NCBI GenBank assembly: GCA_038883795.1
Contig: JAVZLK010000014.1
Location: forward strand, 1-35,426
Source: Candidatus Bathyarchaeia archaeon
GTDB taxonomy: Archaea; Thermoproteota; Bathyarchaeia; Bathyarchaeales; Bathycorpusculaceae
Direction: 5' to 3'
Length of the DNA: 35,426 bases
Below are positions 2,043-15,344 of the stretch, piece by piece. Position numbers and translations under genes: made by a program. The first letter of the stretch is position 1, and each line of letters opens with the position of its first letter. The notes beneath the pieces are model-generated. The model worked only from the letters and a program-made list of their open reading frames with translations. It had not been told where the DNA came from and ran no database searches.

Positions 2043-5000
2043 TTAAATAGATGTGGTTAAGAATGCGAATTTTAGCTGGTAAACGCCATTTGCTTCTTCC
2101 GTGTATGCTAAACCGATGATATTGTTGTAGCTTTGGAAAAATCCTGATATCCCGTCATATTGGTAGTAGCCTGCTAAGTTGCTTTCGATTATCCATGGAT
2201 TTGAGCCTTCGACGAAATTCCATGTTGAACCGTTATAAACTTTGTAGTAGATGCAGTTTGCTGTTGGGGCGCCTGCCCAAAAGCAATAGAGTTTGTTTGT
2301 CGCCACATCAATGGTTAGGACGGGGGATGTTTCGCTGGTTACTGCGGGCTGGACTATAGTTTCTGGTCCCCAAGAATTTAAATCATAGCTGTATTTTGTG
2401 TAGACAAGGTCGTGGGTTAAATCTTTTATGAAGACTAGGTGGACGTCGTCGCCTTGATTTACGGCAGATAAACCGCATTCAATAATTCCATCGCTTGTTA
2501 TTGCGCTTCTTGTAGTTTGTTTTTCGCTCCATGAAGAGCCGTTCCATAGGTAAGATTCAATTTGCCATCCACCACATGAGACTATGGCCAGCATTTTTTG
2601 ATTTGTTAATGGCACAATCATAACGTTTATTCCTGTATAGTTGGTTGGGGATAACTGATGTGGAAATCCTGGTGCAGTTATCCATGTTCCGTTAGAGGTT
2701 AAAGATGTTGTTATGAAGGCGTATCGGCTATTTTCAGTAGCGTTTTTTCGAGCGTAAGCCACCCAAGGTCTTCCTTCGCTGTCAATTGCGATTGAAGGCC
2801 ATAGATGTCCCGTATCACTTTCGCCAACAGTGATGTTTTGCTCATCGTCTAACCACGTTATTGTTCCATCGGCATTCGGCAATCCACACCTATAATATAA
2901 CGGGTCGCCGTTTTTCCCTGTGCTAAAAACGTAATGTAAGTGGGTTCCGTTGAAGGCGACGGCGAACCGCCATCCAGCACCGCAAGCTTTGGGTGAAAAT
3001 GGTGTGAAAGGCGTCCATGAGAAACTATCAGTTGAGGTGCTATATCCTGCACTGCTTGCGCCGTTGTAGTAGAATACCCAGAATCTTCCATTAGCGTAAA
3101 AGATTTTTCTTTGGCAAGCATATTCGACAGCTGCATATCCATAAGTTGTCAATGTTGCAATGGTGCTTTGATTCCCTGAAATTGTTAGAATTTGTATTCC
3201 AGTGGATGTCCAATTTCCTGCTGTGTTGTTTGCCCAAATACACCATTGAACCACCGCACCTATTGTGCTATTAAGGATTTTTACTATGGATGCTAGGGCA
3301 AAGGTTTTTCCTTCGCCGAAAGAAAATGTTTCGTTTACCCATACTCCTGTGTTGTTTGTGCCGAAAATATAGTGGCTGAGGTTACTGTTTTCAGCTATAA
3401 ATACTGCACTGAAATTACAAGGCGCTGCAGCTTTTGTAGTGTTTAAACTTATTTCGGAAACTTTTATGGAAGGAATTTGTGCAAGCACCGCCGTTATGGT
3501 TTTGTTTCCGTCTATAATTATAACTGCTGGATTTTGACTTCCAGAAAGATTACCGCTCCACCCTACGAAGGACCAGCCCGAAGCTGGAACCGCTGTTAGT
3601 TCAACAACATCGCCATAATAATATGGCGCTGTCTTGTTAAGGTTAACCGTTCCGCCTTCAGAGGGCGACCAGTTTATTGTTAATGTGTACTCGTTGGGGG
3701 CGAAGAACACTACTATTGTGCGGTTAGCATTTATGGAGTAGAACGTGTACGTGCCTATTGGTCCTTGGGATACGTCGTCAACAACCACATCGTATATGTG
3801 GTAGCCTACTTCTTGCGTGATTGCGAATGTTATGTTTTCGCCATAATAGGCGGTTATTAGGCCGGATGGTTGTATTGTGCCGCCAGTGCCTATTACTGAA
3901 GCATTTATGACGTATTGTTTAGGCGCAAAGTGAACTGTGATAGTCATGTTTTTGGTCATGGTTATTGTTATTGATATTTCATTACTTTCGAAGTCTCCAG
4001 TCCAGCCGACAAACTCGTAGCCTTCATCTGGAAAGGCTGTCAAAGTGACATTTTCACCTTGTTTATAGGCGGCTTTTTCCGGGTTTATGTATACTGATCC
4101 GTTGCCGTCAATTGTTATGGTCAGTAGGTAGGTTTCTTCAAATATCTCTTCTTCTGGTCCTATTGTGTAGAATACTGATGGATTAAGCTGGTTATTATAT
4201 TCTGTTAGTATCCAAACTGCGCTACGTGTAATGTTTGACACCCTAACTTCATCGATGAAGCCATAGAACTTGCGCACATGATCGTAGCGGTCGCCAATAT
4301 ACATGTTTCGGGATGGCCAAATGGGGTTTGAAGCGGGAGTAGAGGCTGGAGATCCGTCATTGACATATAGCTTAGCGGTTGTGCCGTCGAAGGTTGCCAC
4401 GACGTAGTACCATTTGTTAATGGTTATGGATTTGGAAACCATAATGTTGTTGATATATAATTCGATTCTGCTATCGCTGTAGACTTGCAGGAATGCACCC
4501 TGATATGGACTCTGGTATTGAGAAATGAAGTAGCGTGCGCCAGGTTTTGGATAAATCCAAGCGCTGAAAGTGAATTGTATTTCGGTAGTGAAGATCCGTG
4601 GCAGCTGGATGTAGCCGCCGTTGAATTTAACGCAGTTTCCTATGTATCCCATCGTACCTTGGACTAGACTGCCGTATGGTGTACCATTGTTATCGTTTAT
4701 TGTGGAATCGTAGAGTATTTCTGATCCCTCGTTTAAGTGCATTACAAGTTTGTAGTTTGTATCCCATACTCCTGTTGAATTCTGTTGGTTTCCACAGTTT
4801 TGGTTTCCATAGTACATGTAAAGAACAGTGTCCGTTATAGGAGACAAGTATGGTGCTTTAACCCAAACGATTAAGTGTCCCGTTGCACTATCATAAAGCT
4901 CTATTTGATGATCTAGTTTGATGTGGTTCGCATCTGTGAAAACGAAGTCATCTCCGTCTGGCTGTGCCTTTTCAGTGAAGCTGCTGTCAATTATTTCGAT

Positions 5001-5066
5001 TAGCACTGGGAAGTCTGTTAGTTCTCCGCCTACTTTTGTGTGATTTATTGTTATTGTTCTACGGTA
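2043..5066 (-). CDS. C-terminal half of the interrupted giant surface protein: DUF2341-type module, LamG/concanavalin-like domain, three InlB-B/bacterial-repeat Ig-like units, C-terminal beta-propeller-like region
   Basis: The frame of ORF 2043..5006 stays open up to 5069 and reads YRRTITINHTKVGGELTDFPVLIEII. It contains DUF2341 motifs (AQPDGDDFVFTD, LDHQIE, VWVKAP, LYMYYGN) and LamG motifs (FTFSAWI, WYYVVATFDG, GFIDEVRVS). It has no signal peptide of its own. Confidence 0.9.
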   Translation of the reverse strand, partial: YRRTITINHTKVGGELTDFPVLIEIIDSSFTEKAQPDGDDFVFTDANHIKLDHQIELYDSATGHLIVWVKAPYLSPITDTVLYMYYGNQNCGNQQNSTGVWDTNYKLVMHLNEGSEILYDSTINDNNGTPYGSLVQGTMGYIGNCVKFNGGYIQLPRIFTTEIQFTFSAWIYPKPGARYFISQYQSPYQGAFLQVYSDSRIELYINNIMVSKSITINKWYYVVATFDGTTAKLYVNDGSPASTPASNPIWPSRNMYIGDRYDHVRKFYGFIDEVRVSNITRSAVWILTEYNNQLNPSVFYTIGPEEEIFEETYLLTITIDGNGSVYINPEKAAYKQGENVTLTAFPDEGYEFVGWTGDFESNEISITITMTKNMTITVHFAPKQYVINASVIGTGGTIQPSGLITAYYGENITFAITQEVGYHIYDVVVDDVSQGPIGTYTFYSINANRTIVVFFAPNEYTLTINWSPSEGGTVNLNKTAPYYYGDVVELTAVPASGWSFVGWSGNLSGSQNPAVIIIDGNKTITAVLAQIPSIKVSEISLNTTKAAAPCNFSAVFIAENSNLSHYIFGTNNTGVWVNETFSFGEGKTFALASIVKILNSTIGAVVQWCIWANNTAGNWTSTGIQILTISGNQSTIATLTTYGYAAVEYACQRKIFYANGRFWVFYYNGASSAGYSTSTDSFSWTPFTPFSPKACGAGWRFAVAFNGTHLHYVFSTGKNGDPLYYRCGLPNADGTITWLDDEQNITVGESDTGHLWPSIAIDSEGRPWVAYARKNATENSRYAFITTSLTSNGTWITAPGFPHQLSPTNYTGINVMIVPLTNQKMLAIVSCGGWQIESYLWNGSSWSEKQTTRSAITSDGIIECGLSAVNQGDDVHLVFIKDLTHDLVYTKYSYDLNSWGPETIVQPAVTSETSPVLTIDVATNKLYCFWAGAPTANCIYYKVYNGSTWNFVEGSNPWIIESNLAGYYQYDGISGFFQSYNNIIGLAYTEEANGVYQLKFAFLTTSI

Positions 5067-5083
5067 GGTTCACTTAGTAGTTA
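5059..5083. repeat. Left attachment site (attL): core CTACGG(TA) plus arm TAGGTTCACTTAGTAGTTA
   Basis: The core at 5059-5066 is repeated at 9876-9883. Arm 5065-5083 matches the reverse complement of 9857-9875 at 16/19 positions. Confidence 0.88.
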
Positions 5084-5097
5084 GAAAACTATAAATA
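5084..5097 (+). promoter_or_regulatory. Putative archaeal BRE/TATA promoter of the first recombinase
   Basis: GAAAAC-TATAAATA, with the TATA at 5090-5097, ~35 bp upstream of ATG 5133 and immediately inside the left arm. Confidence 0.5.
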
Positions 5098-5132
5098 CGG
5101 ATTCCGACAGAGACTAGGCTAGGTAAGGAAAA

Positions 5133-6440
5133 ATGGAAAACGTAACAAAGTGGTTAATGAAAGTGTCCAATTCAAAGGCTACCGTAAGTAACTATGAATA
5201 TCGCATTAGAAAATTTGCGTCATATATGAAGGAGCATTTCAACATTGACATAGAAACATTGAAGGATGCATATCGAGAAGCTAAGTATAAGGGTGAAATT
5301 GAAAGAGAGAAATTCTTAGATAGGCTACATGATGCGATTGAGGATTATGTTTGTTTCTTTAAGACGCAGGGCTATACCAATATGCACGTTAAAGTTATGG
5401 TTTCGATAATCTCTAGCTACATAAAGAAGGGATGCGGAATAAGAGATATTGACATAGATATACCGAAAAGACCTTTCCCAATATATCATAACCGAGACAT
5501 AACAAAAGAAGAGATTAGAAAAATCCTAGAGCATTGTTCACTTAGAGACCGTGCATTCTTTCTAATGATGGTTGAAAGCGGATTAAGACCTAGCACACTT
5601 CTAGGCTTACGTTATAAGCATATCAAACAAGACTTTGAAAGAAACATTATTCCAATGAAGATAGAGTTACCTTCAGAATTGTTGAAAGACCGCATAAGTG
5701 CAAGATGGAGTTTCATAGGTGAAGACGGCTTTAAAGTATTGAAGGAATATCTTAGCGCACGAAAAGACATAGGTGATAACGATTTCTTATTCTTACCTGA
5801 AAAGCCTAGTAGAGTAAAAGCTGAAGTTCCTAGCGAATCTGCAATGAGCAACAAATTTAACCGAATAGTGTTAAAACTAGGCTTAGACACGCCATTACAT
5901 AAAGGAAAACCCAAAAGCCTAAGGTTGTATAGCTTACGCAAATATTTCTTTAACAATATGAAGTGTGATAGTGCATACCGAAACTATTGGTTCTGTCATA
6001 AAAGCATTGATGACCACTACATAAGTCAAGACGTGCAAAAACATAGAGAAGAGTATGCCAAAGGCTACAAGTTTCTAAGAATTTATGAACCTAGCGATAT
6101 AGATGTGCGTATTGAGGCTTTAACTAGAGAATTAAAGGAAAAACATCAGAGAATACAAGAATTAGAAGAGAAGTTTGAAAGGTTACAACCATTGATAGAC
6201 TTTGTTAATGAATTTTTCAATGAGACGACTCTATCACAGTTTCTTAACGATATAAAGAATGTAGATGTCTTGAGTGTTGAAAAAAAGAATGGTGAAGGAA
6301 TTTCGTTTATGAATTTGAGTCGCCAAACTGTGAAGCTTTTAGCGGAATTTATGAAAAGGCATAACATAAGTGATCCTGACGAAGCATTAAATACCCTCTT
6401 TAGAATGGTAATAGAATCAAAGAAACAACAACAACCTTAA
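5133..6440 (+). CDS. Tyrosine recombinase/integrase 1 (XerC/D-like) with C-terminal coiled coil and RHH-like tail
   Basis: N-terminal SAM-like region (SKATVSNYEYRIRKF). Catalytic motifs are LRDRA...ESGLRPS (Arg), YSLRKYF (YxxR in place of HxxR) and WFCHKSIDDHY (His, Tyr). Confidence 0.9.
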   Translation: MENVTKWLMKVSNSKATVSNYEYRIRKFASYMKEHFNIDIETLKDAYREAKYKGEIEREKFLDRLHDAIEDYVCFFKTQGYTNMHVKVMVSIISSYIKKGCGIRDIDIDIPKRPFPIYHNRDITKEEIRKILEHCSLRDRAFFLMMVESGLRPSTLLGLRYKHIKQDFERNIIPMKIELPSELLKDRISARWSFIGEDGFKVLKEYLSARKDIGDNDFLFLPEKPSRVKAEVPSESAMSNKFNRIVLKLGLDTPLHKGKPKSLRLYSLRKYFFNNMKCDSAYRNYWFCHKSIDDHYISQDVQKHREEYAKGYKFLRIYEPSDIDVRIEALTRELKEKHQRIQELEEKFERLQPLIDFVNEFFNETTLSQFLNDIKNVDVLSVEKKNGEGISFMNLSRQTVKLLAEFMKRHNISDPDEALNTLFRMVIESKKQQQP

Positions 6441-6462
6441 CCTTCTCTTTTTTCTTTTGTTT
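6441..6462 (+). terminator. T-rich archaeal-type terminator candidate
   Basis: CCTTCTCTTTTTTCTTTTGTTT directly follows the integrase 1 stop codon. Confidence 0.4.
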
Positions 6463-6507
6463 CGTAAGAGTTCATACTTAAATATTGAATCTTTCATAAT
6501 AACAATT

Positions 6508-6693
6508 ATGCAATATAGACTAAACAAAAAAAACTTTACTAGACTGCAGAATAAGTTTATGCCTTTCAAATGTTATCGGTGTGGAAGACGGTTTAAAATT
6601 GGCGACTTTATTATATCTAAACGGAATGCAAGGGCGAAACATAGAAAGTTTTATCACTATTCCTGCTTCGAATCTTTATATTTGGAGGCGTAA
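6508..6693 (+). CDS. Small basic Zn-finger protein (CxxC...HxxC)
   Basis: KCYRCGRRF...FYHYSCF. ATG 6508 is a more plausible start than TTG 6457. The stop lies 3 bp before the next ORF. Confidence 0.7.
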   Translation: MQYRLNKKNFTRLQNKFMPFKCYRCGRRFKIGDFIISKRNARAKHRKFYHYSCFESLYLEA

Positions 6694-6696
6694 GAG

Positions 6697-7140
6697 TTGA
6701 GTGAGTTTCAACTTCCAAATTTAACCATAAAAGACAAAATCAACTATCCATACATTTTGGCTAATGCACTTCTAAAGTTTCAAGAGGCTATCATTAAAGC
6801 TGAAGGAGAACTAAGCGAGCAAGAGGTTAGAGAAGCGGCATTATGCCTTTTTAACATGATTCCTAAAACTTGGTATGATGAAAAATTCATAAAAGACGTA
6901 AAAAAGGCTACGTTTAAAGTGAAAGTTGATGTTCGTAAAGAATGGTGTGGTGTAAAGGTTGGACAACCAAAATATGAAAAGGTTGAAGAGATTAACCCTT
7001 ATAGGCTTGTCAATGCTTGCGTGAATCTTTTAGAACGTAGAGAACTTATTTCTAAGAAAGAAAGAATTGAGAAGGTGGAAGGTGTTTACATTGAGCCTGA
7101 CGGAGAGTTTGAAGAGCCTACGGAAGAAGTCAGCACCTAG
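6697..7140 (+). CDS. Hypothetical protein (element-encoded, acidic C-tail)
   Basis: 147-aa ORF with GGAGG ~8 bp upstream of the TTG start; tightly packed in an operon with the Zn-finger and ATPase genes. Confidence 0.75.
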   Translation: MSEFQLPNLTIKDKINYPYILANALLKFQEAIIKAEGELSEQEVREAALCLFNMIPKTWYDEKFIKDVKKATFKVKVDVRKEWCGVKVGQPKYEKVEEINPYRLVNACVNLLERRELISKKERIEKVEGVYIEPDGEFEEPTEEVST

Positions 7141-7144
7141 CTAC

Positions 7145-8053
7145 ATGAATTTTCACGGTTTCAAAGTTTTTAGAGATGCGGATAGAGGATATTCACCTTA
7201 CTTTCAAAGTATGCTAGCCTATCGGATTAAAAGAAAATTGGCAACTAACATAGTTGTTACGGGTGAAGCTGGAATCGGCAAAAGCTATTTGGCTACGGAT
7301 ATCGCTAGAATCATCGAAGGCTTAGACGAGAATGGAAATGATAGGTTTAGCCTAGACCAGGTAGTATTCACTTATGCCGAGTTTATGGATTTGGTTCTAG
7401 AGTTAGAGCATGGAAGACCTATCGTTTTTGATGAGCCTAGTTATGCTATGGGTAAGCGTGAGTGGTATAGGGATTTGAATAAGGTTCTAGTTCAAACCAT
7501 TGAATCTTTTCGGTTTAAAGTGCATCCGTTAATCATTCCAATAATCAATAAGAGCCTTTTAGACAAGACGTTGAGAGAACATTTAATTCAATATCAAGTT
7601 GTGGTTTATGATAGAGGTAAAGCTACGGTTTACCGTGTTAAGCCTTCCCAATTTATTGACCGAGTCTATTATGCCTATTTCTGCAAGCTAGAGTATAGCC
7701 TATTGGATATGCACTTATGCAACCGTGAATCATGCCTAGACTGTAGCCAACTGGCGACTTGTAACATCTTTAGGGCTAGGTATGAACGTAAAAAGGCAAG
7801 CATACAAGACACAAGATACGAGCAGGCAAGAGACCAGGCGGCACAAGTTGAAACTAGGAAGCTAACGGTTTCTCAATTGGAGAACCTAGCTTTATCCATA
7901 AAAGACAAGTTCATTGAAAACGGCAAGCTGTCGGTTCAGAAACTACGAGTAGCAATGATGGACACATACGGAATAAGCCTATCTAATCCTAAGGCATATC
8001 AGTTGAAAGCTAGCCTAGAAATCCACTATGGAAACAAACTATACGAAAGTTAG
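7145..8053 (+). CDS. P-loop NTPase (Zot-like/virus-associated AAA-type) with a Cys cluster
   Basis: Walker A GEAGIGKS, Walker B PIVFDE, and the Cys motif CNRESCLDCSQLATC. ATG 7145 lies 4 bp after the upstream stop and is preferred over the overlapping 7067 start. Confidence 0.85.
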   Translation: MNFHGFKVFRDADRGYSPYFQSMLAYRIKRKLATNIVVTGEAGIGKSYLATDIARIIEGLDENGNDRFSLDQVVFTYAEFMDLVLELEHGRPIVFDEPSYAMGKREWYRDLNKVLVQTIESFRFKVHPLIIPIINKSLLDKTLREHLIQYQVVVYDRGKATVYRVKPSQFIDRVYYAYFCKLEYSLLDMHLCNRESCLDCSQLATCNIFRARYERKKASIQDTRYEQARDQAAQVETRKLTVSQLENLALSIKDKFIENGKLSVQKLRVAMMDTYGISLSNPKAYQLKASLEIHYGNKLYES

Positions 8054-8256
8054 CACTATAATTATCATTTTTCTTTTCACCATCTTTTCATTAAGTTTTA
8101 AACACTAGCTTTTCTAACATTCAAATAGAGAGAAAAGAAGGCTAAACAATAATTATATGTTGAACTTGTCTGTTTAATTAATCATAATAGTTATAAGTTA
8201 GAAGGGGCATTTTTCTTCTGGATTGAGTTAGAAATCTAGGCAAAGGTGAGAGTATA

Positions 8257-9750
8257 GTGAGCTTAGAAAGGTTCTTAGAGAAAGAGAACGTTCAACCTTC
8301 CATAGAAAAGAAAACTCAAGTCGGCTTTGTTGATGATTGGCTTAACAAAAACTTCCGAGTTGAAAAAACAAAAAGGGATTATGTTTTAGCAATTCAACTT
8401 TTCGTAAAGGCTATCTATGGTAATGATGCTACTGATTACAATGGCTTTATTTCGAGATACTTTAAGGAACAAAGAAACTTTCTAGAAGACTTAAAGACAT
8501 TCATTCAATATATGAATAGAGAAGGATATGCACCTCGTTCTATTCATACGCTAACAATCGTAATTAAGAAGTTCTTTTCAAGACATGGGCATAAGATTTC
8601 TGATGATGACTGGGAAGATATTAGCCGAGGTTTACTACCACCTAATGTAGCGGCTACACAAGACGAGATTCTAACAAAAGACCAATGCAAAATGTTGTTA
8701 CCTCACTTCTCGGTTCTAGGCAAAGCAATATTCCTTTTCCTATTAAACACTGGTGCAAGGATAGGTGAAACATTGAAACTTAGAGTGGATGACTTCAATT
8801 TGGAGACGGATCCGCCTAGCGTGTATATTCGCCCACAATATACTAAGGGCGGTGTTGGTGGGCGTGTTATGTGGTTTAGCTATGAGGCGAAAGAGGCTCT
8901 TATAGAATGGTGGAAAGTTAAGGATACAAAAAAGAAACGTGGTAGAGCTGGTAAATTTCCGAAAGAAATGGCTTTTGGCATCAAACCAATTGGTTTTAAT
9001 CTGATGTTAAATATGGCATTACGCAAAGCTGGTTTAGCGAAAAGAGACCCTTCAACAAAAACCAAATTCTACATCTATCATGTTCATACTTTGCGGAAGT
9101 TCTTTTCTACGGCTATGAGTGAAGCTGGAGTTCCAGAATCTATCATTCACGCATGGATGGGACATAAAGGCTACCTGGATAGTGCATACAAGCGTTACAC
9201 GAAAGAAAAGCTGGCTCAAATCTATAAGGAACACATGGATGCGGTTACAATTCAGGGCGGAGTTTCAAAGCACATTCTAGAAGAGCTTAAAATGTTAAGG
9301 CAAAAAAACGAAGAGATAGAGACGCTTAAGAAACTATGTGAAGAGAAAGGAATCAAAAATGGAAGACCTTTAGTTGAGATGTTTAAGGATTTGGCTCTAG
9401 TATTGGCTAAAGAACTTAGTGAAGTTTCTAAGCCTATTCAACCACAACCGATTAAGCCAATTCCACAAGAAACATCACAACCTACTAAAAGTGAGGCAGT
9501 TAGGCCTACCCAAGTAGTTGAAAATGTGCCTATCCCTGAAAAGCCTAAGGAATTGGAAAAGCCAAAAGTTGATTCTACACCTAAAACTTATACACAGTTG
9601 ATTAAAGAAGGAAAATGCCTTAGACAATTGGATTTAAAGGATGCGAAACAATGGGAAATAGCTTGCCATTGGTGTTTCAACAATTACCGTTACACTTATG
9701 ACCAGTGTAGGGCTACGGTTAAAGTGCAAGTAGCAGAGAAAACAATTTAA
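8257..9750 (+). CDS. Tyrosine recombinase/integrase 2 with Pro-rich linker and C-terminal Cys cluster
   Basis: Catalytic set is NTGARIGE (Arg), TKGG (Lys), HTLRKFF (HxxR) and WMGHKGYLDSAY (His, Tyr). RBS GGTGA lies upstream of the GTG start. The C-tail has KPIQPQPIKPIP then C...ACHWC...C. Confidence 0.93.
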   Translation: MSLERFLEKENVQPSIEKKTQVGFVDDWLNKNFRVEKTKRDYVLAIQLFVKAIYGNDATDYNGFISRYFKEQRNFLEDLKTFIQYMNREGYAPRSIHTLTIVIKKFFSRHGHKISDDDWEDISRGLLPPNVAATQDEILTKDQCKMLLPHFSVLGKAIFLFLLNTGARIGETLKLRVDDFNLETDPPSVYIRPQYTKGGVGGRVMWFSYEAKEALIEWWKVKDTKKKRGRAGKFPKEMAFGIKPIGFNLMLNMALRKAGLAKRDPSTKTKFYIYHVHTLRKFFSTAMSEAGVPESIIHAWMGHKGYLDSAYKRYTKEKLAQIYKEHMDAVTIQGGVSKHILEELKMLRQKNEEIETLKKLCEEKGIKNGRPLVEMFKDLALVLAKELSEVSKPIQPQPIKPIPQETSQPTKSEAVRPTQVVENVPIPEKPKELEKPKVDSTPKTYTQLIKEGKCLRQLDLKDAKQWEIACHWCFNNYRYTYDQCRATVKVQVAEKTI

Positions 9751-9856
9751 TGCCTTTTGCTAAGTGTTCTATTGAGGCTATGAAGACATCGAGGTAATAT
9801 GAAGGGGACAAGATGATTTGTTTTTCCGCTTCTGAGCCTCTTTAAAGCTGATACAT

Positions 9857-9883
9857 TAACTACTAACTTAATCTACTACGGTA
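9857..9883. repeat. Right attachment site (attR): arm TAACTACTAACTTAATCTA plus core CTACGGTA
   Basis: Inverted partner of arm 5065-5083. It contains the TAG stop (9863-9865, minus strand) that ends the upstream host ORF. Confidence 0.88.
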
Positions 9884-12800
9884 CTTCCAAGAGATGTTCC
9901 ACCAGTCTGCTGGAATTTCCACGAAGACAGCTGTAATATTTTTGTTTCCGTCGATGATTATGGTGATCGTCTCGTTTGTTCCGGACAGGTCGCCACTCCA
10001 GTGAGAAAATGTCCAACCATTCTCAGCGATGGCTGTTAACTCCACCACGGTGCCATAAGTGTATGTTGGCAGATCTGGATTCTTTGTCACTGAACCGCTT
10101 CCTTCCGGAGAAACGTTCACTGTTAAAGTGTAATTGTTTGGAGCGAAGAACGCTGTTATGGTATGGTTTGCGCATACAGCGTAGAATGTATATGAGGATA
10201 TTGATCCTCGGGATTCGCCGTCCACTAATACTTCAAGAATATGACAGCCTATGTTAGGCGTAATTGTGAAAGTTATGTTTTCGCCATGATATGCTGTTAC
10301 TGGGCCAGAGGGTTCTATAGTTCCACCAGTACTGCCTACCAACGCAGCAATAATGTATTGTTTGAGATTGAAGTGTGCCGTTACAGTCATGTTGCCAGTA
10401 ATTATGAAGGTTATAGGATTATCTAAACTTGAAATGTTCCCGCTCCAGTGGCTGAAACTCCAGCCAATATAAGCGGATGCGTTCAATTGAACTGGGGTTC
10501 CATAAGTGTATGTTGGCTGTTCTGGCGATTTAATTACATTTCCTGAGCCTTCAACATTTATGGTCAGAACATATTGTTCTTGGGTGAAGTTAGCATAAAC
10601 TGTTTTATTGTTATCCATTAGAATTATTGTAGGATTCTCGCTGCCTGAAATGTCTCCGCTCCACCAAACAAATTTCCAGCCCGCGTCTGGTACAGCTGTT
10701 AATGTTACGTTTTCGCCGTGAGCGTAGAATGCAAAGTCCGGGTTTTTGTTTACCGTACCATTGCCGATTATGATAATGGTTAATGTGTATGGGTTTTGCG
10801 TAAAAATTGCTGTTACGGATTCGTTGCTATTCATCATAATCGTTATTGGATTCTCACTACTTGAGGTATCACCGCTCCAACCAGCAAACATCCAGCCGGG
10901 ATAAGCAGTGGCTGATAGTGTTACGTTTTCACCATAAGTGTACGTTAGTTTGTTTGGTTCGATTGTCACGTTGCCGTTTCCAAGAATGGTTATTGTTAAG
11001 ATGTAGTGGTCTTGTGTGAATACCGCTGTCACCGTTTTGTTATCATCAATTATTATGGTTGTTGGGTTTTGGCTGCCATTTAAATCCCCCTCCCAATGGG
11101 AGAATGACCATCCAGCATTTGGAACAGCAGTCAATTCAACTACGTCGCCATAATGGTATGGGACTGTTTTGTTAAAGTTAACGTAGCCACCGTCTATTGG
11201 TGATATGTTTATCGACAGTGTGTATTCGGTTTTGTTAAAGACGGCAACTACGGTTTTGTTCCCATTCATTAGTATAGTTGTTGGGTTTTTGTTGCCTGTT
11301 AAGTCGCCATCCCAATGTGAAAATGCATAGCCAATGTCTGCTATTGCAGTCAACTGGACAAGTGTGCCGTAGGGATAAGTTTCATTGTCAGGGTTTTTGG
11401 TGACTGAACCGTTTCCAACCGTTGATATGGTTAAGGTCACATTTCCCTGGCTTGGTGGAACTTCTTCTGTTGTAAACGTGAAGGTTTTTGTATTTGTGTT
11501 GGTTCCATCCGTGGCTGTTACTGTCCAAGTGTAGGTTGTTGAGTAGGCTAAGCTGTTGACTGGAACCGTAATTATTCCATTAGGTACGTTTATACCGCTA
11601 GCTGATACTATGTTTGGGTTAGTTGTGACTGTGTAATTTATCGGGTCGCTTTGGTAATCTGTCAATTTAAAGCTCAAGTACGGAAGAGTCACCGAAACGT
11701 TTGTTAAGCCATCATTAGGCGAGATTTCAGATATTCTTGGCTCTTGTGGTCCTGGTGGAGGCCTATAAACTGGTACGCTTCCCCTGTATTGGTGGTAGTG
11801 GGTAAGCCCGGATTTTGGTAGCGGGTTTGGTGCAGACACTTCTACGTCATAGACGCTAATCCAACTATTATGCTGATTGAAGACTAGTTCAAGCTTGCCG
11901 TCGGCGTCTATGTCTTGAACTATGAAAAACGCATGGACCATGGGCAGGTTTATGGTTCCTATGATATCATAATTTTTTGTGACGGAATTATATTTGAAGA
12001 TGGTTACGTTATTTACGTTGCAGTCTAATATCTCCCATTTTCCATCTCCATCCACATCAGCTAATCCAGGAGGATGTAGACATGGAAACGGAAGCGTAGC
12101 ATCCAATTTCCAGTTAACCAAATCCCATATCTTGGGCTGCTTTCGATCACGAGCCGTTATCAATTCAAGGTTGCCGTCGCCATCCACGTCAGCAACGGTT
12201 GGAGGATCATGCGCTGGCAAACCAAGGTTCAGTTTCTTCCGATATATGCCCTTATACGTGTTAACACTTCCGTCCGTGTTAATAACTGCGATGCCACCAC
12301 TTGTAGTACCTTGGTTAAGTATGATTATTTCAAGATCTCCATCATTATCCACGTCTGCAATTGTAGGAGCTTGACTGCTACACAGTATGTCAGGGTAGGC
12401 CCATATTTCAGTTAGATTATCTGCCCAAAAAGCTCTAAGCCCCCTTCCACCAGAGGGATACGATGGATACGATTCGCTTCTTTCACCTAAATAAACTTCA
12501 AATACTCCGTCAAAATCAGTGTCCGCTAAACTCATTCCACCATAACACGTATAATAAGTATAGGTGGAGGCAAATATCTGACCATCATAAGTTAGAGCGG
12601 TAACCCGGCTTGGATAAGCAGAAAAGATTTCAGGATATCCGTCAGCGTTAATATCGCCCACAGCTATGTACGTACCTTTTCCAGCAGCTTTTGTATTATA
12701 CCACCAAATAGAACCGTTGATTCCGTGTAGAACCATTACTCCGTTGCTGGTAGTTCCGTTGACATATTGGGGGGCCATCACTATTTCCAGAAAGCCATCT

Positions 12801-13141
12801 TTGTTTAAGTCTACTATCTCCATAGGAACATGATCACCACCATATGGTACTGACCATATAACTTCGCCTGTTTCGGGATCTAGTGCTGCTGTCTTCCCGG
12901 TTAACCCGGATATCACTATTTCCATATCGCCGTCGTTGTTTAAATCAGCTGCCAACGGACCCATCCACGTACTGCCGGTGCCGGCATTAGCTTTCCATTT
13001 TAACGTTATCGAAAGTGTGTTTTGTTGTCCAAACACGTGGGTAACATCTATAAAGCTAACAAAGCCTTGAATAACTAGAATGATCAAAATTATGCTTAAC
13101 AATTTTTTATGTAAGTTCAATCGGTACCTTTCTCCAACCAT
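9863..13141 (-). CDS. N-terminal half of the interrupted giant secreted surface protein: signal peptide, FG-GAP/VCBS-type beta-propeller, Ig-like domain, seven InlB-B/bacterial-repeat units
   Basis: Hydrophobic N-terminus (KKLLSIILIILVIQGFVSF), repeated Ca-binding DxNxDGxxEI motifs, and YTLTI...G.V.K.P...Y.YG..V.LTA....GW.F..W.GD repeats. The last four residues (SRLS*) derive from the element end. Confidence 0.92.
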   Translation of the reverse strand: MVGERYRLNLHKKLLSIILIILVIQGFVSFIDVTHVFGQQNTLSITLKWKANAGTGSTWMGPLAADLNNDGDMEIVISGLTGKTAALDPETGEVIWSVPYGGDHVPMEIVDLNKDGFLEIVMAPQYVNGTTSNGVMVLHGINGSIWWYNTKAAGKGTYIAVGDINADGYPEIFSAYPSRVTALTYDGQIFASTYTYYTCYGGMSLADTDFDGVFEVYLGERSESYPSYPSGGRGLRAFWADNLTEIWAYPDILCSSQAPTIADVDNDGDLEIIILNQGTTSGGIAVINTDGSVNTYKGIYRKKLNLGLPAHDPPTVADVDGDGNLELITARDRKQPKIWDLVNWKLDATLPFPCLHPPGLADVDGDGKWEILDCNVNNVTIFKYNSVTKNYDIIGTINLPMVHAFFIVQDIDADGKLELVFNQHNSWISVYDVEVSAPNPLPKSGLTHYHQYRGSVPVYRPPPGPQEPRISEISPNDGLTNVSVTLPYLSFKLTDYQSDPINYTVTTNPNIVSASGINVPNGIITVPVNSLAYSTTYTWTVTATDGTNTNTKTFTFTTEEVPPSQGNVTLTISTVGNGSVTKNPDNETYPYGTLVQLTAIADIGYAFSHWDGDLTGNKNPTTILMNGNKTVVAVFNKTEYTLSINISPIDGGYVNFNKTVPYHYGDVVELTAVPNAGWSFSHWEGDLNGSQNPTTIIIDDNKTVTAVFTQDHYILTITILGNGNVTIEPNKLTYTYGENVTLSATAYPGWMFAGWSGDTSSSENPITIMMNSNESVTAIFTQNPYTLTIIIIGNGTVNKNPDFAFYAHGENVTLTAVPDAGWKFVWWSGDISGSENPTIILMDNNKTVYANFTQEQYVLTINVEGSGNVIKSPEQPTYTYGTPVQLNASAYIGWSFSHWSGNISSLDNPITFIITGNMTVTAHFNLKQYIIAALVGSTGGTIEPSGPVTAYHGENITFTITPNIGCHILEVLVDGESRGSISSYTFYAVCANHTITAFFAPNNYTLTVNVSPEGSGSVTKNPDLPTYTYGTVVELTAIAENGWTFSHWSGDLSGTNETITIIIDGNKNITAVFVEIPADWWNISWKYRSRLS

Positions 13142-13260: not shown

Positions 13261-14385
13261 TCATTCCATTAATTGCTTGTAAATTGAGCATAGTTTATTG
13301 CAAGCGTTTTCCAATGAGTATTGCTCTTTAACGAGTTTTCGCCCATCACGAGCCATTTTTAACCTAACATCCTCGTTTTTAAGCAAATAATCTATAGCTT
13401 CTGCCAGCTGGATGGAATTGCCTGGCGGAATTAAAATCCCAGTCTCATGGTTTTTGATTATTTCTGGAGCACCGCCAACAGGAGTCGCTATTACGGAGGT
13501 TTCACAGGATAGAGCTTCTAGAATTGTCACGGGGAAGCCTTCAGCGAATGATGGGAGAATGAGAAGTGAAGCCTTTTGATACCATTCTATTATTTCGCTT
13601 TGTTCCATGGCGCCCAAATATTTTATTTCGTGTTTTCCTTTCTTGTTTTCATTTTTAATTAGATTTAACAAGCTTTGATAGTAGTTGGCATTCCAGCCCG
13701 GCGGCCCAATTATGACCAAGTGCACACTTTCTTTCAAATATTTTAGAGCTCTTATTAGTATGTGTAAGCCTTTAAGTTCTGAGATTCTGCCAACGTACAG
13801 AAGCAAATTTTTCTCTTTATGGTTTCCTGGTTTGAAGAAGTTTGTGTCTATGCTGTTTGGCACGTAAGTGATTTTGCTTTCTGGGATTCCAAGGGCTATT
13901 AACTCTTTTGTCATCTGGTTTGATAGGGAGACGTATATGTTAGCTAAATGTTTTAGCAGGAATCTGCTTACGTGATGTTTTTTTAGGAAGTTGGATTTTA
14001 TTCCATGCAGGTGGATTATTTTTGGTTTTTTTATGAAGTATGAGAAGAATGGGAAGCTTAGTTCAAACTCGTGAAAGTGTATAATATCATAGTTTTTTAA
14101 TATGTTAGTGAATCTTCCTGGTATGAAGTTGACTCCTGCTGTAATTTTGTATGAATGTAGTTTCCATAGCCAATTTAACGCTGGGATTCTGAACACTGAG
14201 ATTCCGTCGATTTTTTCTGTTTTTCCATGCCATTTTGGTTTTCTATTTTGATCCACGTTGAATGTCATTATGTCTGTTTGTATGCCGTTTTTGTTAAGGG
14301 TTATGGCAAGGTTTCTAACTATTGTTTCTGTGCCGCCTTTAACCGGATAGTAACAAGGAGTAACCATTAAAACGTGCATAGGCAT
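13261..14385 (-). CDS. Glycosyltransferase family 4 (GT-B)
   Basis: YYPVKGGTE N-terminus, LYVGRISELKG, and PSFAEGFPVTILEALSC (EX7E). Confidence 0.93.
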   Translation of the reverse strand: MPMHVLMVTPCYYPVKGGTETIVRNLAITLNKNGIQTDIMTFNVDQNRKPKWHGKTEKIDGISVFRIPALNWLWKLHSYKITAGVNFIPGRFTNILKNYDIIHFHEFELSFPFFSYFIKKPKIIHLHGIKSNFLKKHHVSRFLLKHLANIYVSLSNQMTKELIALGIPESKITYVPNSIDTNFFKPGNHKEKNLLLYVGRISELKGLHILIRALKYLKESVHLVIIGPPGWNANYYQSLLNLIKNENKKGKHEIKYLGAMEQSEIIEWYQKASLLILPSFAEGFPVTILEALSCETSVIATPVGGAPEIIKNHETGILIPPGNSIQLAEAIDYLLKNEDVRLKMARDGRKLVKEQYSLENACNKLCSIYKQLME

Positions 14386-14396
14386 CCTTTAAGCGA

Positions 14397-15344
14397 TTAT
14401 TGAAGTGTTTCATAGAAAAATGTATGAAAGTGGTTTTTGATGAATTTTGGATGGTAATTGAAGCGGTTTACAGCCCATCTGATGCTTGTTTGGTAGGAGT
14501 TGTTTATTTTTTCTTTGGTTATTGTTAGTTTTTTGTATGGGGTGTTGAGGGTGATGCTGGTGTCTATTATTTTGGCTTTCTGTAAAGTTTTTATTCTTTT
14601 TATCAAGAGTTCGAGTTTTTGGAATAGGCGTTCTATTTCTTCTGCTGGTCTTTTGGGGACTGTTGAGAGGGTTTTCGGGTTTCCTTTATAATATATGGAG
14701 TCCCATTCGATTTTGTTCACGAGTAATGTTGGATGTAGGTCGAAAATTGTTATTTTATGTCGTAGTATTGAGGAGAGGAGACATTTGTAGTTGTATGTTG
14801 TACCGTTCCATTGCTGTGTTACTGTATATGGGTAGAAGGTTAATTTCTTATAGGAAACTGGTTCTGAGTTTGTGAGGTTTGCGGAGAAATCGTATTTTAT
14901 GCCGAGACTTTTTAAGGCTTCAAGGTGTGGCGGTGTCCAACACATGCCCGGCGCTCGAAAGGCCTCTATTTTTTTGGGATGAAATAGTTTTTGAAGGAAG
15001 TATATTCCGCCTTCTCCCTCTATTTTTCCTGTTAACGGGTTTATATGGGAAGTTTCCCTTTCCGCTGCGATTTCGCAAGCTTTTTCGTAGCTTTTTAGGT
15101 CGGTGTATTCTGGGATTGTTGGGCGAACCGAATGGTTGGAAGAATGAAAGCCAATTTCGTGGCTTTTAAGCATCTCAACAATTTGTGGGTAACTACTTAT
15201 TTTTTCAGCCATAAGCCCTGTAATAAAGAATATAGCCTTCAACTTATATTTTTGTAAGATTTTAAGGATTCTTTGAAGCGCAGAAGTAGCGTTTGGGTTT
15301 ATGAAATCTTCAACATCAAATGTTAATAACAACTTTTGTTTCAT
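14397..15344 (-). CDS. Polysaccharide deacetylase family protein (NodB/CE4-like)
   Basis: LLTFDVED, HEIGFHSSNH and FRAPG motifs. Confidence 0.85.
   Translation of the reverse strand: MKQKLLLTFDVEDFINPNATSALQRILKILQKYKLKAIFFITGLMAEKISSYPQIVEMLKSHEIGFHSSNHSVRPTIPEYTDLKSYEKACEIAAERETSHINPLTGKIEGEGGIYFLQKLFHPKKIEAFRAPGMCWTPPHLEALKSLGIKYDFSANLTNSEPVSYKKLTFYPYTVTQQWNGTTYNYKCLLSSILRHKITIFDLHPTLLVNKIEWDSIYYKGNPKTLSTVPKRPAEEIERLFQKLELLIKRIKTLQKAKIIDTSITLNTPYKKLTITKEKINNSYQTSIRWAVNRFNYHPKFIKNHFHTFFYETLQ

Follow-up and report, generated by a model that had tools for sequence, protein, structure and literature searches.

In the window analyzed here, a stretch of 35,426 nucleotides, a 4.8-kb element (positions 5059-9883) forms a precisely bounded insertion in the gene for a surface protein of ~2,100 aa. 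The combination of a spindle-virus ATPase, two different integrases and an element-borne copy of a small host RNA gene suggests a new kind of integrating virus satellite. The reading that we favor, with moderate confidence, is that it is an integrative, satellite-like derivative of a spindle-shaped-virus-like lineage of Bathyarchaeia-type archaea, so that the satellite suggested by an earlier sequence-only reading is retained as the leading interpretation. The archaeal host proposed in that reading is borne out by a CdvA gene in the element's own genome and by the genome-collection loci that encode the ATPase, two of three of which are titled Candidatus Bathyarchaeota.

The borders of the element are marked by two identical 8-bp direct repeats, CTACGGTA, which form the cores of attL (5059..5066) and attR (9876..9883) and lie 66 nt upstream of the first recombinase gene and 125 nt downstream of the second. 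Just inside them are imperfect inverted-repeat arms of 20 nt, IRL (5064..5083) and IRR (9857..9876), which are 85% complementary; the conserved sequence continues from IRL to ~5097 and begins at ~9850 on the right. Both 8-bp copies are in the same codon phase of the interrupted gene, whose N-terminal fragment (9863..13141, minus strand) encodes FG-GAP and InlB B-repeats and whose C-terminal fragment (2043..5066, minus strand) encodes DUF2341, LamG and B-repeats, with a frame that is open up to the repeat. The upstream fragment ends in ..WKYR/SRLS and a stop codon, the reading frame gives YRRTITINHTKVGG.. above the downstream fragment, and an unbroken paralogue in the same genome has W.YRKTIIIDHTKVSG here; removal of the element restores the reading frame. 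The GC content is 0.33-0.36 within the element versus ~0.42 outside, and no tRNA genes were found in the window. The element thus entered the gene through a conservative, site-specific recombination event at an 8-bp identity bordered by inverted arms. A sister element, L022, shares IRL and a further ~30 nt in conserved form and also has the IRR motif GATACATTAACTA.. at its right end; L022 is the only locus that shares the ends of the window element. None of the three CRISPR spacers of the genome matches the element.

All five ORFs of the element lie co-directionally on the plus strand, which confirms the compact order of integrase, zinc finger, hypothetical protein, P-loop ATPase and integrase described from the sequence. 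Int1 (435 aa, 5133..6440) matches PF00589 (8.3e-12, 45.7 bits) and the phrog_1 integrases (2.4e-18), and Int2 (497 aa, 8257..9750), which has a long Pro/Lys-rich, Cys-containing tail, matches PF00589 at 8.8e-15 (55.3 bits); both scores exceed the curated Pfam cut-off of 27.1 bits. With an identity of only 21.6%, the two tyrosine recombinases are indeed dissimilar. The solved structure closest to Int1 is XerA (4a8e), to which its Arg-I could be aligned, while the YSLRKY and CHKS...DHY motifs in its C-terminal part, in which Tyr replaces the first His, were read by eye only. Alignment of Int2 to the same structure revealed the full catalytic set of Arg, HxxR and H..Y. Directly after Int1 follows a small zinc-ribbon protein (78 aa, 6457..6693) with a CxxC...HxxC motif that has no family match in Pfam, PHROGs or NCBIfam; ORFs of 60-61 aa with CxxC...CxxC occupy the same place in L022 and L041, and the protein is a possible directionality factor. 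Searches against Pfam, PHROGs and NCBIfam detected no Rep, primase, helicase, relaxase or capsid protein in the element, and none of its five ORFs encodes a short protein with two hydrophobic helices. The claim that genes for replication, conjugation and capsids are absent therefore stands for Rep, primase, relaxase and capsid, but is qualified by the match of the ATPase to the 'DnaA-like' SSV1 B251 family.

This ATPase was listed as an ORF at 7067-8053, and its start is likely at 7145 (7145..8053) since homologues are ~300-315 aa long. It has a Cys-rich helical C-terminal half and matches phrog_5484 (9.8e-11) over profile positions 18-166 of 239, the same family that SSV1 B251 matches at 5e-101. 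An hhalign comparison of the ATPase (A1) with B251 gave 75% (E 2.4e-5), the motif after Walker B included. For the structure model (pLDDT 88), one of the three best BFVD matches was Acidianus two-tailed virus ORF286 and two were nameless; matches in the PDB to RuvB and Zot were weak, and the nearest ESM Atlas clusters were labelled Viruses, which is a lead only. By these comparisons, the window ATPase belongs to the SSV1 B251 AAA+ family, whose members are the signature ATPases of archaeal viruses with spindle-shaped particles. A search of 100 relatives' genomes found this ATPase in none of them.

Upstream of the ATPase lies its conserved partner h147 (147 aa, 6697..7140, plus strand). The two genes are a conserved pair in the metagenome loci (80+ loci), and, after length filtering, an h147-type ORF was found directly upstream of 43 of 79 ATPase ORFs in related loci; in L022, a 192-aa membrane-like protein is encoded where h147 would be. 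The AlphaFold2 model of h147 (pLDDT 83) found no convincing fold match, with an uncultured archaeal virus protein as the best BFVD match (E 0.012) and a best PDB match of Z 6.4. A relationship of h147 to the SSV1 A153/A154 partner (phrog_6627) was not detectable: its profile scored a probability of 1% against A153, and no PHROG matched. A ~224-aa protein of the larger elements described below (cluster c0b) scored 63% against A153 (E 7e-5) over 36 columns.

The annotation of phrog_5484 and phrog_11254 as 'DnaA-like replication initiation protein' raises the alternative of an autonomous integrative plasmid, in which the B251-like ATPase is the initiator of a self-replicating ~4.8-kb circle that the recombinases integrate and excise without a helper virus. 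In agreement with this, many relatives of the ATPase are found on contigs of roughly 4-6 kb, and no helper was found in the element's own 87%-complete genome, where HMMs of 12 virus-module clusters (c1, c0b, c3, c4, c6, c7, c9, c11, c12, c14, c15 and c17) matched nothing. However, a circularly redundant contig of ~4.2 kb (L043) carries, besides h147 and the ATPase, a rolling-circle Rep-like gene (a weak PF23343 match of 4e-5, below the cut-off), and the pSSVx and SRCE elements discussed below are described as pairing this ATPase with separate plasmid replication proteins, which argues against initiation of replication by the ATPase alone. The likeness to DnaA itself goes back to a sequence prediction from 1992, as cited in the reference list of PMC9608457. 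We therefore regard the autonomous plasmid as unlikely.

The relatives of the ATPase comprise 435 proteins (E<=0.001, out of 1,453 candidates), and a search of IMG/VR returned no relative. From 153 metagenome stretches encoding a relative, 80 were kept, and 25 of these had enough flanking sequence to judge the context: 21 were larger virus-like elements, while two had the compact layout with a recombinase at either end (L017 and L022), which is also partially visible on a shorter contig, L041. The seed search proposed earlier thus recovered the layout of integrase, ATPase and second integrase in two of 25 loci and one short contig, and the ends with L022 only; the suspicion that the group is recurrent and apparently undescribed is supported. 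The larger elements encode paired hydrophobic proteins of 60-80 aa with two predicted helices that resemble spindle-virus capsid proteins, a protein of 1,000-1,500 aa, a DUF2341/LamG protein and, downstream of the ATPase, a minimal tyrosine recombinase (c2). The capsid and end-filament candidates are putative assignments by size, hydrophobicity and gene order, and hhalign of the candidate capsid proteins against SSV1 VP1 and VP3 was not significant. The pair of h147 and B251-family ATPase is a module that these larger elements have in common with the window element.

That the ATPase module resides mostly in large virus-like elements is the pattern that the sequence-only reading had named as pointing to a deletion remnant or a chance composite. 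Such an element would be immobile, derived from a large provirus or from two integrase cassettes, and the single copy of the ATPase in the genome, the non-orthologous second recombinases of sister elements (see below) and the lack of an excision product among the assembled contigs are all consistent with it; neither an empty site nor a circular junction was seen among these contigs, which drop rare forms. Yet all five ORFs are open, the catalytic set of Int2 is complete, the direct repeats match exactly and the inverted arms have been retained. Moreover, a contig from another hot-spring study (run X2), a 90-95% relative, is similar over positions 9789-9875 and ceases to match at the same right edge, and L022 and L017 reside in different targets with their own repeats of 9 bp and 13 bp. 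The ATPases of L017, L022 and L041 are only 57-70% identical, and recurrence of the compact layout at this distance implies long maintenance. We consequently consider a dead remnant even less probable than the autonomous plasmid.

To compare the recombinases of the sister elements, we used the phylogeny that had been suggested for both enzymes, with a different outcome for each. Orthologues of Int1 are encoded at the head of L022 (71-78% identity), L041 and L017, and with these first recombinases Int1 forms a clade of seven rows (SH-aLRT 98). Int2 groups with the second recombinase of L017 (SH-aLRT 100), whereas the second recombinases of L022 and L045 fall in a different clade, and thus are not orthologous between sister elements. 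Since the ends vary with Int1 from one sister element to the next, Int1, perhaps with the zinc-ribbon protein, probably works the ends of the element. Because the terminal repeats follow Int1 while the second recombinase is non-orthologous, an obligate XerC/D-like pair, one of the roles first considered for the two enzymes, is unlikely. Int2 lies beside the ATPase, a position that in SSV1 and the larger elements is occupied by a recombinase of their own, and it may be a second, exchangeable recombination module. An SSV-type 'suicidal' integrase with the att site inside its gene was ruled out, as Int1 and Int2 are intact and the repeats lie outside both.

The earlier statement that there is only one pair of att sites overlooked that the element harbors, at 9771..9847 (plus strand), a copy of a C/D-box-like small RNA gene whose chromosomal counterpart is an integration target. 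The copy matches, over its full length, a covariance model trained exclusively on 10 host copies (51.2 bits, E 1.8e-10) and keeps all five stem pairs, three of them through changes on both sides; it is an intact, though diverged, homologue of the family's chromosomal target. Among 101 related genomes, counting the window's own, 59 have the gene. The chromosomal gene of the window's own genome is uninterrupted, while L022 splits the gene exactly at a conserved site with which it shares 9 bp. In the alignment, a terminal stem encloses the C box (..GAUGA) and the D box (CUGA), between which lie D' and C' boxes, all recognized by the C/D box consensus. Archaeal C/D box sRNAs typically have about 12 nt between boxes, which this RNA does not fit, with 15 nt from C to D' and from C' to D as counted on the alignment. 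No Rfam family matched, and no guide targets were found in the genome or its relatives, whose assemblies mostly lack rRNA genes. The copy beside Int2 may serve Int2 as its attachment site in recombination with the chromosomal gene, or may be a spare for a gene that family members split when they integrate. Elements that integrate into tRNA or tmRNA genes can bring along a partial copy of the RNA gene, a situation resembled by the conserved landing site of L022 and by the RNA copy next to a recombinase gene in the window; here, however, the RNA is C/D-box-like, L022 splits the gene with 9 bp shared, and the window element carries the whole gene. Our literature search revealed no precedent for a guide-RNA gene as an attachment site copied into a mobile element.

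The exact entry of L022 into a conserved site also bears on the least probable alternative, a tyrosine-recombinase transposon like the bacterial SE, Tn554, GInt and RIT elements, which likewise enclose more than one such recombinase within imperfect inverted repeats at their termini, next to short flanking sequences (SE carries two RHRY recombinases bounded by inverted repeats of 13-19 bp; PMC10214605), and which would explain the mid-gene position and the differing, loosely defined targets by joint action of both enzymes on the inverted ends, but whose recombinase genes are described as adjacent, operonic and at one end, whereas those of this archaeal element are 1.8 kb apart at opposite ends with three genes between, the second is exchanged for one of another clade in L022/L045, and the flanking 8-bp copies are identical, unlike the 'fingerprint/footprint' pattern of SE.

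For the satellite-like derivative that we favor, Int1, maybe with the zinc-ribbon protein, would act on the inverted ends, and the retained h147-ATPase module would allow the circular form to be replicated and/or packaged by a helper virus. Dependence on a helper is proposed because a capsid gene is missing and no Rep is recognizable, and is modelled on proposals for pSSVx and haloarchaeal SRCE elements. Int2 would be the exchangeable second module, with the adjoining small RNA copy perhaps as its attachment site. Speaking against this view, the virus-module HMMs detected no helper in the 87%-complete genome, the assembled contigs showed neither an empty site nor a circular junction, the ATPase was not found among the relatives' genomes, and IMG/VR yielded no relative. 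More tentatively, we propose a group of integrating satellites of uncharacterized Bathyarchaeia spindle-shaped viruses that use a C/D-box-like guide-RNA gene as landing site, as tRNA genes are used elsewhere; some members would carry an intact RNA copy, and with two independent recombinase modules landing would occur in two ways, by Int1 at the inverted ends or by Int2 at the RNA copy.

The element has the satellite trait of a virus signature ATPase without a full virion module. [quoted passage not shown] Like the window element, pSSVx of Saccharolobus and the haloarchaeal and nanohaloarchaeal SRCE elements are small (2.7-9 kb) and combine this ATPase with an incomplete virion module; the capsid protein is missing from pSSVx, which retains A154 and B251 as a gene pair. 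They are plasmids with a Rep or primase-helicase that are not described as integrating, whereas the window element is integrated, lacks a recognizable Rep, and differs in its two tyrosine recombinases, its small RNA copy and its host lineage. An integrating satellite is known in pSSVi, a satellite plasmid of the spindle-shaped virus SSV2; it is listed with an Int(N) moiety when integrated, so its integrase gene appears to be split on integration, while both recombinase genes of the window element are intact with the ends outside them. To our knowledge, pSSVi has no B251 homologue. Fuselloviridae such as SSV1, and the Bathyarchaeia spindle provirus 'Huangdivirus', share the B251-family ATPase and its integrase neighbor: the B251 gene of SSV1 adjoins the integrase gene, and in Huangdivirus integrase and AAA+ ATPase are numbered as neighboring genes 16 and 17 (PMC10848311). 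The window element differs in lacking capsid, end-filament and other virion genes, and resembles these viruses in sequence only in its ATPase. The cryptic integrated elements described from Thaumarchaeota also bear integrases, with att sites down to 8 bp, some in intergenic DNA or in protein-coding genes; unlike the window element, they occupy the 3'-distal parts of genes, 'two integrase' does not occur in that account, and no small RNA target was seen there (PMC6563490).

Until 2025, the known archaeal virus satellites comprised two Saccharolobus plasmids, together with the haloarchaeal circles proposed in bioRxiv 10.1101/2025.02.15.638363. The virome of Bathyarchaeia is barely described, with one study of 56 genomes that includes a single spindle provirus (PMC10848311). 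The present locus connects a small integrating element with an extensive family of 435 ATPase homologues that is unannotated and absent from IMG/VR, and offers a testable case of a guide-RNA gene that serves as an attachment site and is copied into a mobile element. The site occupied by L022 and the empty site in the window's own genome are concrete substrates for recombination assays. As a whole, the ATPase family appears to represent a lineage of spindle-virus-like elements that is widespread in hot springs and sediments.

The element at 5059-9883 consists of five co-directional ORFs. Specifically, the first tyrosine recombinase, Int1 (5133-6440, +), is followed by a 78-aa CxxC...HxxC protein (6457-6693, +), the 147-aa protein h147 (6697-7140, +), a P-loop ATPase (+) and the second tyrosine recombinase, Int2 (8257-9750, +). 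The longest ORF of the ATPase starts at 7067, and 7145 is the likely start since 40 aligned homologues are ~300-350 aa long. Int1 and Int2 both score above the PF00589 cut-off, share 21.6% identity and have the archaeal XerA (4a8e) as their best solved relative. The element is flanked by an 8-bp direct repeat, CTACGGTA (5059-5066 and 9876-9883), immediately inside which lie inverted 20-nt arms with a complementarity of 85%. Its GC content is 0.33-0.36 versus ~0.42 outside, and no tRNA gene was found in the window. A small zinc-ribbon ORF is present 3' of Int1 here as well as in L022 and L041, two sister elements with the compact two-recombinase layout, and we consider that its product may be a directionality factor.

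The insertion separates two parts of a surface-protein gene. The N-terminal fragment (9863-13141, -) contains FG-GAP and InlB B-repeats and runs to ...WWNISWKYR, after which come four residues encoded by the element, then a stop. The C-terminal fragment (ORF 2043-5006, -, with the frame open to the left repeat at 5066) contains DUF2341, LamG and B-repeats, and the frame upstream of this ORF reads YRRTITINHTKVGGELTDFPV... up to the left repeat. Since the codon phase is identical at both copies of the 8-bp repeat, excision of the element together with one repeat copy yields one open gene of ~2,100 codons. In a paralogue on another contig of the same genome (C22), the motif W.YRKTIIIDHTKVSG..FPVLI is unbroken. 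No orthologous empty site was found, as judged by DNA matches to the 617-nt right flank among 40 relatives. It is purely speculative whether inactivation of this surface protein has an effect on virus attachment. The interrupted gene lies at the edge of a long minus-strand envelope-glycosylation cluster (13261-34276) that fills the rest of the contig and encodes several GT2 and GT4 glycosyltransferases, four GFO/IDH/MocA oxidoreductases, a polysaccharide deacetylase, an acetyltransferase, a methyltransferase, a DUF2206 membrane protein and a beta-helix protein.

Among the PHROGs, the ATPase matched phrog_5484 (9.8e-11) and phrog_11254, which are the same two families that are matched by SSV1 B251 (from NC_001338; 5e-101 and 2.5e-15). 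A direct comparison of the ATPase profile with the B251 sequence (75% probability, E 2.4e-5) aligned Walker A, Walker B and the subsequent ...K..WY.. motif. The element ATPase is, accordingly, a spindle-virus ATPase of the SSV1 B251 family. Its AlphaFold2 model is confident (pLDDT 88); ORF286 of Acidianus two-tailed virus was among the three best neighbours in BFVD, the other two being unnamed, while the PDB returned only generic P-loop matches (RuvB, Zot, RFC-like). The closest ESM Atlas clusters, also unnamed, are labelled viral, which we treat as a lead only. A tblastn search of 50,697 phage and archaeal-virus records with the ATPase returned nothing meaningful, and for the h147 fold no convincing match was obtained in BFVD or among 48,161 PDB representatives. 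One study describes spindle-shaped viruses as having a signature module in which an AAA+ ATPase accompanies a hydrophobic alpha-helical capsid protein, and the ATPase as being retained in pSSVx and the new SRCE circles (bioRxiv 10.1101/2025.02.15.638363).

To place the element among its relatives we collected ATPase homologues, which amounted to 435 proteins at E<=0.001 among 1,453 candidates, mostly on short contigs. The locus set comprised 83 loci (3 from genomes and 80 of the 153 metagenome hits); the IMG/VR virus collection gave 20 pattern matches and no relative. With length filtering, ORF clustering gave 43 cases of h147 directly 5' of the ATPase, as compared to 79 ATPase ORFs. Twenty-five loci were informative, having at least 2.5 kb upstream and at least 1.8 kb downstream. 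A larger conserved module was present in 21 of these, the compact layout with the ATPase between two integrases in two (the sister elements L017 and L022), an upstream integrase alone in one, and neither in one. Among the shorter loci, both recombinases were found in L041, the ATPase followed by a recombinase in L045, and an upstream integrase alone in four; 40 were too short for classification, and five lacked an ATPase ORF of at least 280 aa. The sequence-only reading had proposed a possibly undescribed family of minimal archaeal integrative elements or satellites, and had named as a refuting outcome, pointing to a deletion remnant or chance composite, that homologous ATPase modules occur mostly with a single integrase or within large proviruses. 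By this criterion, with 21 of the 25 informative loci being large elements, the proposal is not supported as it was worded. The compact layout nevertheless recurs, with ATPases of only 57-70% identity. One further locus, L043, is a 4,900-bp contig with overlapping ends, and therefore probably a circle of ~4.2 kb. Besides h147 and the ATPase, it encodes two proteins, one of 373 aa that weakly matches a rolling-circle Rep and one of 245 aa. The arrangement is pSSVx/SRCE-like, and L043 is a candidate for a plasmid-type satellite within this lineage.

The large elements have a two-strand organization. One strand encodes two adjacent 60-80-aa proteins with two hydrophobic helices each (ORF clusters c9 and c15), a DUF2341 and LamG protein (c20), a 1,000-1,500-aa protein (c3) and a ~300-aa protein (c4). 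The opposite strand encodes c6, c1, c0b, h147, the ATPase, often a ribbon-helix-helix protein, and c2. Of these, c0b (~224 aa) is similar to the ATPase's C-terminal half (95% probability) and weakly to SSV1 A153 (63%), and c2 is a 216-aa protein with tyrosine-recombinase motifs and a weak PF00589 match. This gene order mirrors that of SSV1, where A153, B251 and the integrase adjoin one another; in Huangdivirus, integrase and ATPase are genes 16 and 17 (PMC10848311). We infer that the large elements are spindle-shaped viruses, and go no further than that because hhalign comparisons of their clusters with SSV1 VP1, VP2, VP3, B277, A291, C166 and the integrase gave no significant match. Two diverged copies of the large module (L064 and L071) lie ~20 kb apart on one 48.8-kb metagenome contig, an HNH endonuclease ORF is inserted directly 3' of the ATPase in some large elements (L053, L054 and L058), and L058 also contains a PAPS reductase-like gene (13784-14551).

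A helper was sought in the window's own genome, G000 (87% complete), using HMMs of 17 clusters against its six-frame ORFs, and none was found. None of the 12 virus-module clusters had a match, and h147 and the ATPase matched in the window only. The other matches were two weak ones for c2, three for c10 and four for c20; the best match for c20 was the C-terminal surface-protein fragment (2043-5066, -; E 3.5e-41).

Next, we considered how the two recombinases relate to the element ends. A set of 25 recombinases was placed in a quick maximum-likelihood tree (SH-aLRT supports in brackets). Int1 grouped with the recombinases at the first position in L022, L041 and L017, with the sole integrase of L026 and with the integrases of two large elements, L081 and L056 (98). 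Int2 had the second recombinase of L017 as its sole partner (100), the corresponding enzymes of L022 and L045 formed a separate clade (100), and the upstream integrases of L023, L025, L028 and L031 a fourth. In fuzzy searches the terminal motifs of the window element (left GGTAGGTT...TAGTTAG.AAACTATAAATA, right GATACATTAACTA...) recurred in L022 alone, the Int1 of which shows 71-78% identity; a match on contig C76 (E 0.3) was taken as chance. Since L022, matched in Int1, alone shares the terminal motifs, the element ends follow Int1. Together, tree and motifs indicate that the slot 3' of the ATPase holds exchangeable recombinases, this slot being occupied by c2 in the large virus-like elements, by the integrase in SSV1 and by Int2 in the window. 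Both observations argue against an obligate pair of the XerC/D type (a XerC/D-like pair had been one possibility raised from the sequence), and likewise against an operon resembling SE or Tn554 as defined in PMC10214605. Neither recombinase gene is split, so this is not an SSV-type integrase element.

The window element works most like the pSSVx/SRCE satellites. It differs from these plasmid satellites in lacking Rep, one of their defining features, and resembles pSSVi in being integrated. Thaumarchaeal integrated elements offer precedents for short att sites and for insertion within protein-coding genes (PMC6563490), and a phrase search of a review on archaeal tyrosine recombinases found no mention of two integrases, two tyrosine recombinases or a second integrase (PMC8371274).

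The window spans an entire contig of 35 kb, from an assembly of 2.18 Mb with 87% completeness, and the host is an archaeon because CdvA is encoded elsewhere in the same genome. The runs with this DNA are labelled as hot-spring metagenomes. The ATPase is present in one copy in G000 and was found in none of 100 relatives searched. Three loci with the ATPase came from genome collections, two of them titled Candidatus Bathyarchaeota. The third, L015, is a virus-like 27.8-kb contig binned as Anaerolineae; this assignment may be, and probably is, a binning error, and calls for caution on host range. L015 carries a complete virus-like module (c3, c4, c6, c1, c0b, h147, ATPase, c2). With 26 PF00589 matches, 22 of them above the cut-off, G000 is unusually rich in tyrosine recombinases for a 2.18-Mb genome; many are on short contigs and several form close pairs (for example C63 5268-5729 / 6135-6599 and C35 10274-10726 / 11131-11592; also on C41, C21 and C19). 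A CRISPR array on C30 (19200-19467) has a 37-nt repeat and three spacers before the contig ends, and none of these three spacers matched the element or any locus.

The insertion site of L022 led to a small-RNA gene. A 9-bp repeat, ATCGAGGTA, adjoins the arms of L022, and both its flanks align to a single intergenic site on contig C7 of G000, with a transglutaminase-like gene on one side and a small membrane ORF on the other; an amidotransferase gene near this site also flanks L022. As the L022 flanks align there as one site, it represents the empty target. With G000 itself counted, 59 of 101 related genomes from several families of the order share a ~70-nt core of the site, at 70-96% identity. 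This core has a terminal stem GGAC/GUCC enclosing GAUGA, 15 nt, CUGA, a spacer, and again GAUGA, 15 nt and CUGA, where we take the GAUGA and CUGA elements to be the boxes that name this RNA class. From these features the core (C7 ~39470-39600; 5029-5106, -, in locus L098), with its two 15-nt guide spacers, reads as a C/D-box-like small RNA, an assignment made with some reserve. Archaeal C/D guides have a spacing of ~12 nt, so the 15 nt found here are longer. Rfam gave no match for this RNA or anywhere in 4900-10000. No rRNA target of the guides was found in the genome and its relatives, from whose assemblies rRNA genes are mostly missing; a 12-mer match near an rRNA gene was discarded as lying outside that gene. 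In two same-genus genomes (L145 and L146) the small-RNA gene is inverted relative to the downstream flank. A limited literature search found no paper on a C/D box sRNA gene as archaeal integrase target; a Pyrobaculum sRNA study (PMC6009581) and a wider search gave transposon-like sRNA duplication and MITE-like elements, with no integrase target mentioned.

We searched 95 sources, together 709 kb, with a covariance model derived exclusively from ten host copies. Of its three matches, two were the gene halves that L022 separates (58.3 and 16 bits). The third was a full-length copy in the window element (9771-9847; 51.2 bits, E 1.8e-10), located after the stop of Int2 and before the right arm. 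This copy keeps the boxes, both guide cores and all five stem pairs, three of them through changes on both sides (GGAC/GUCC to GAGGC/GCCUC), which points to an RNA under selection rather than a scar. The region after Int2 in L017 aligns loosely to DNA downstream of the host small RNA, but this alignment was set aside, the covariance model having no match there and the stretch being A-rich.

Read-level evidence came from the assembled contigs of two sequencing runs, X1 and X2, which showed no joint skipping 5067-9883 and no 9883-to-5059 circle junction, although contigs cannot exclude such junctions. In X1, the probable source run, contigs break at 9771-9800, the left edge of the RNA copy, and a lower-depth 626-nt contig has these 30 letters behind another left flank, one that occurs neither in the genome nor in any locus. 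This suggests that the element RNA copy also exists in a second context in the community. In X2, from another study, relatives at 90-95% identity cover Int1 and 9430-9875, with no cover at 6574-9381, and one contig of 414 nt aligns over 9789-9875 and loses similarity precisely at the right end of the element.

The position of the RNA copy could not be derived from a simple aberrant excision. It may be a captured site or, by analogy with elements that target tRNA genes, the attachment site of Int2. Alternatively, the element may carry the copy as a spare, compensating for the target that its relatives disrupt.
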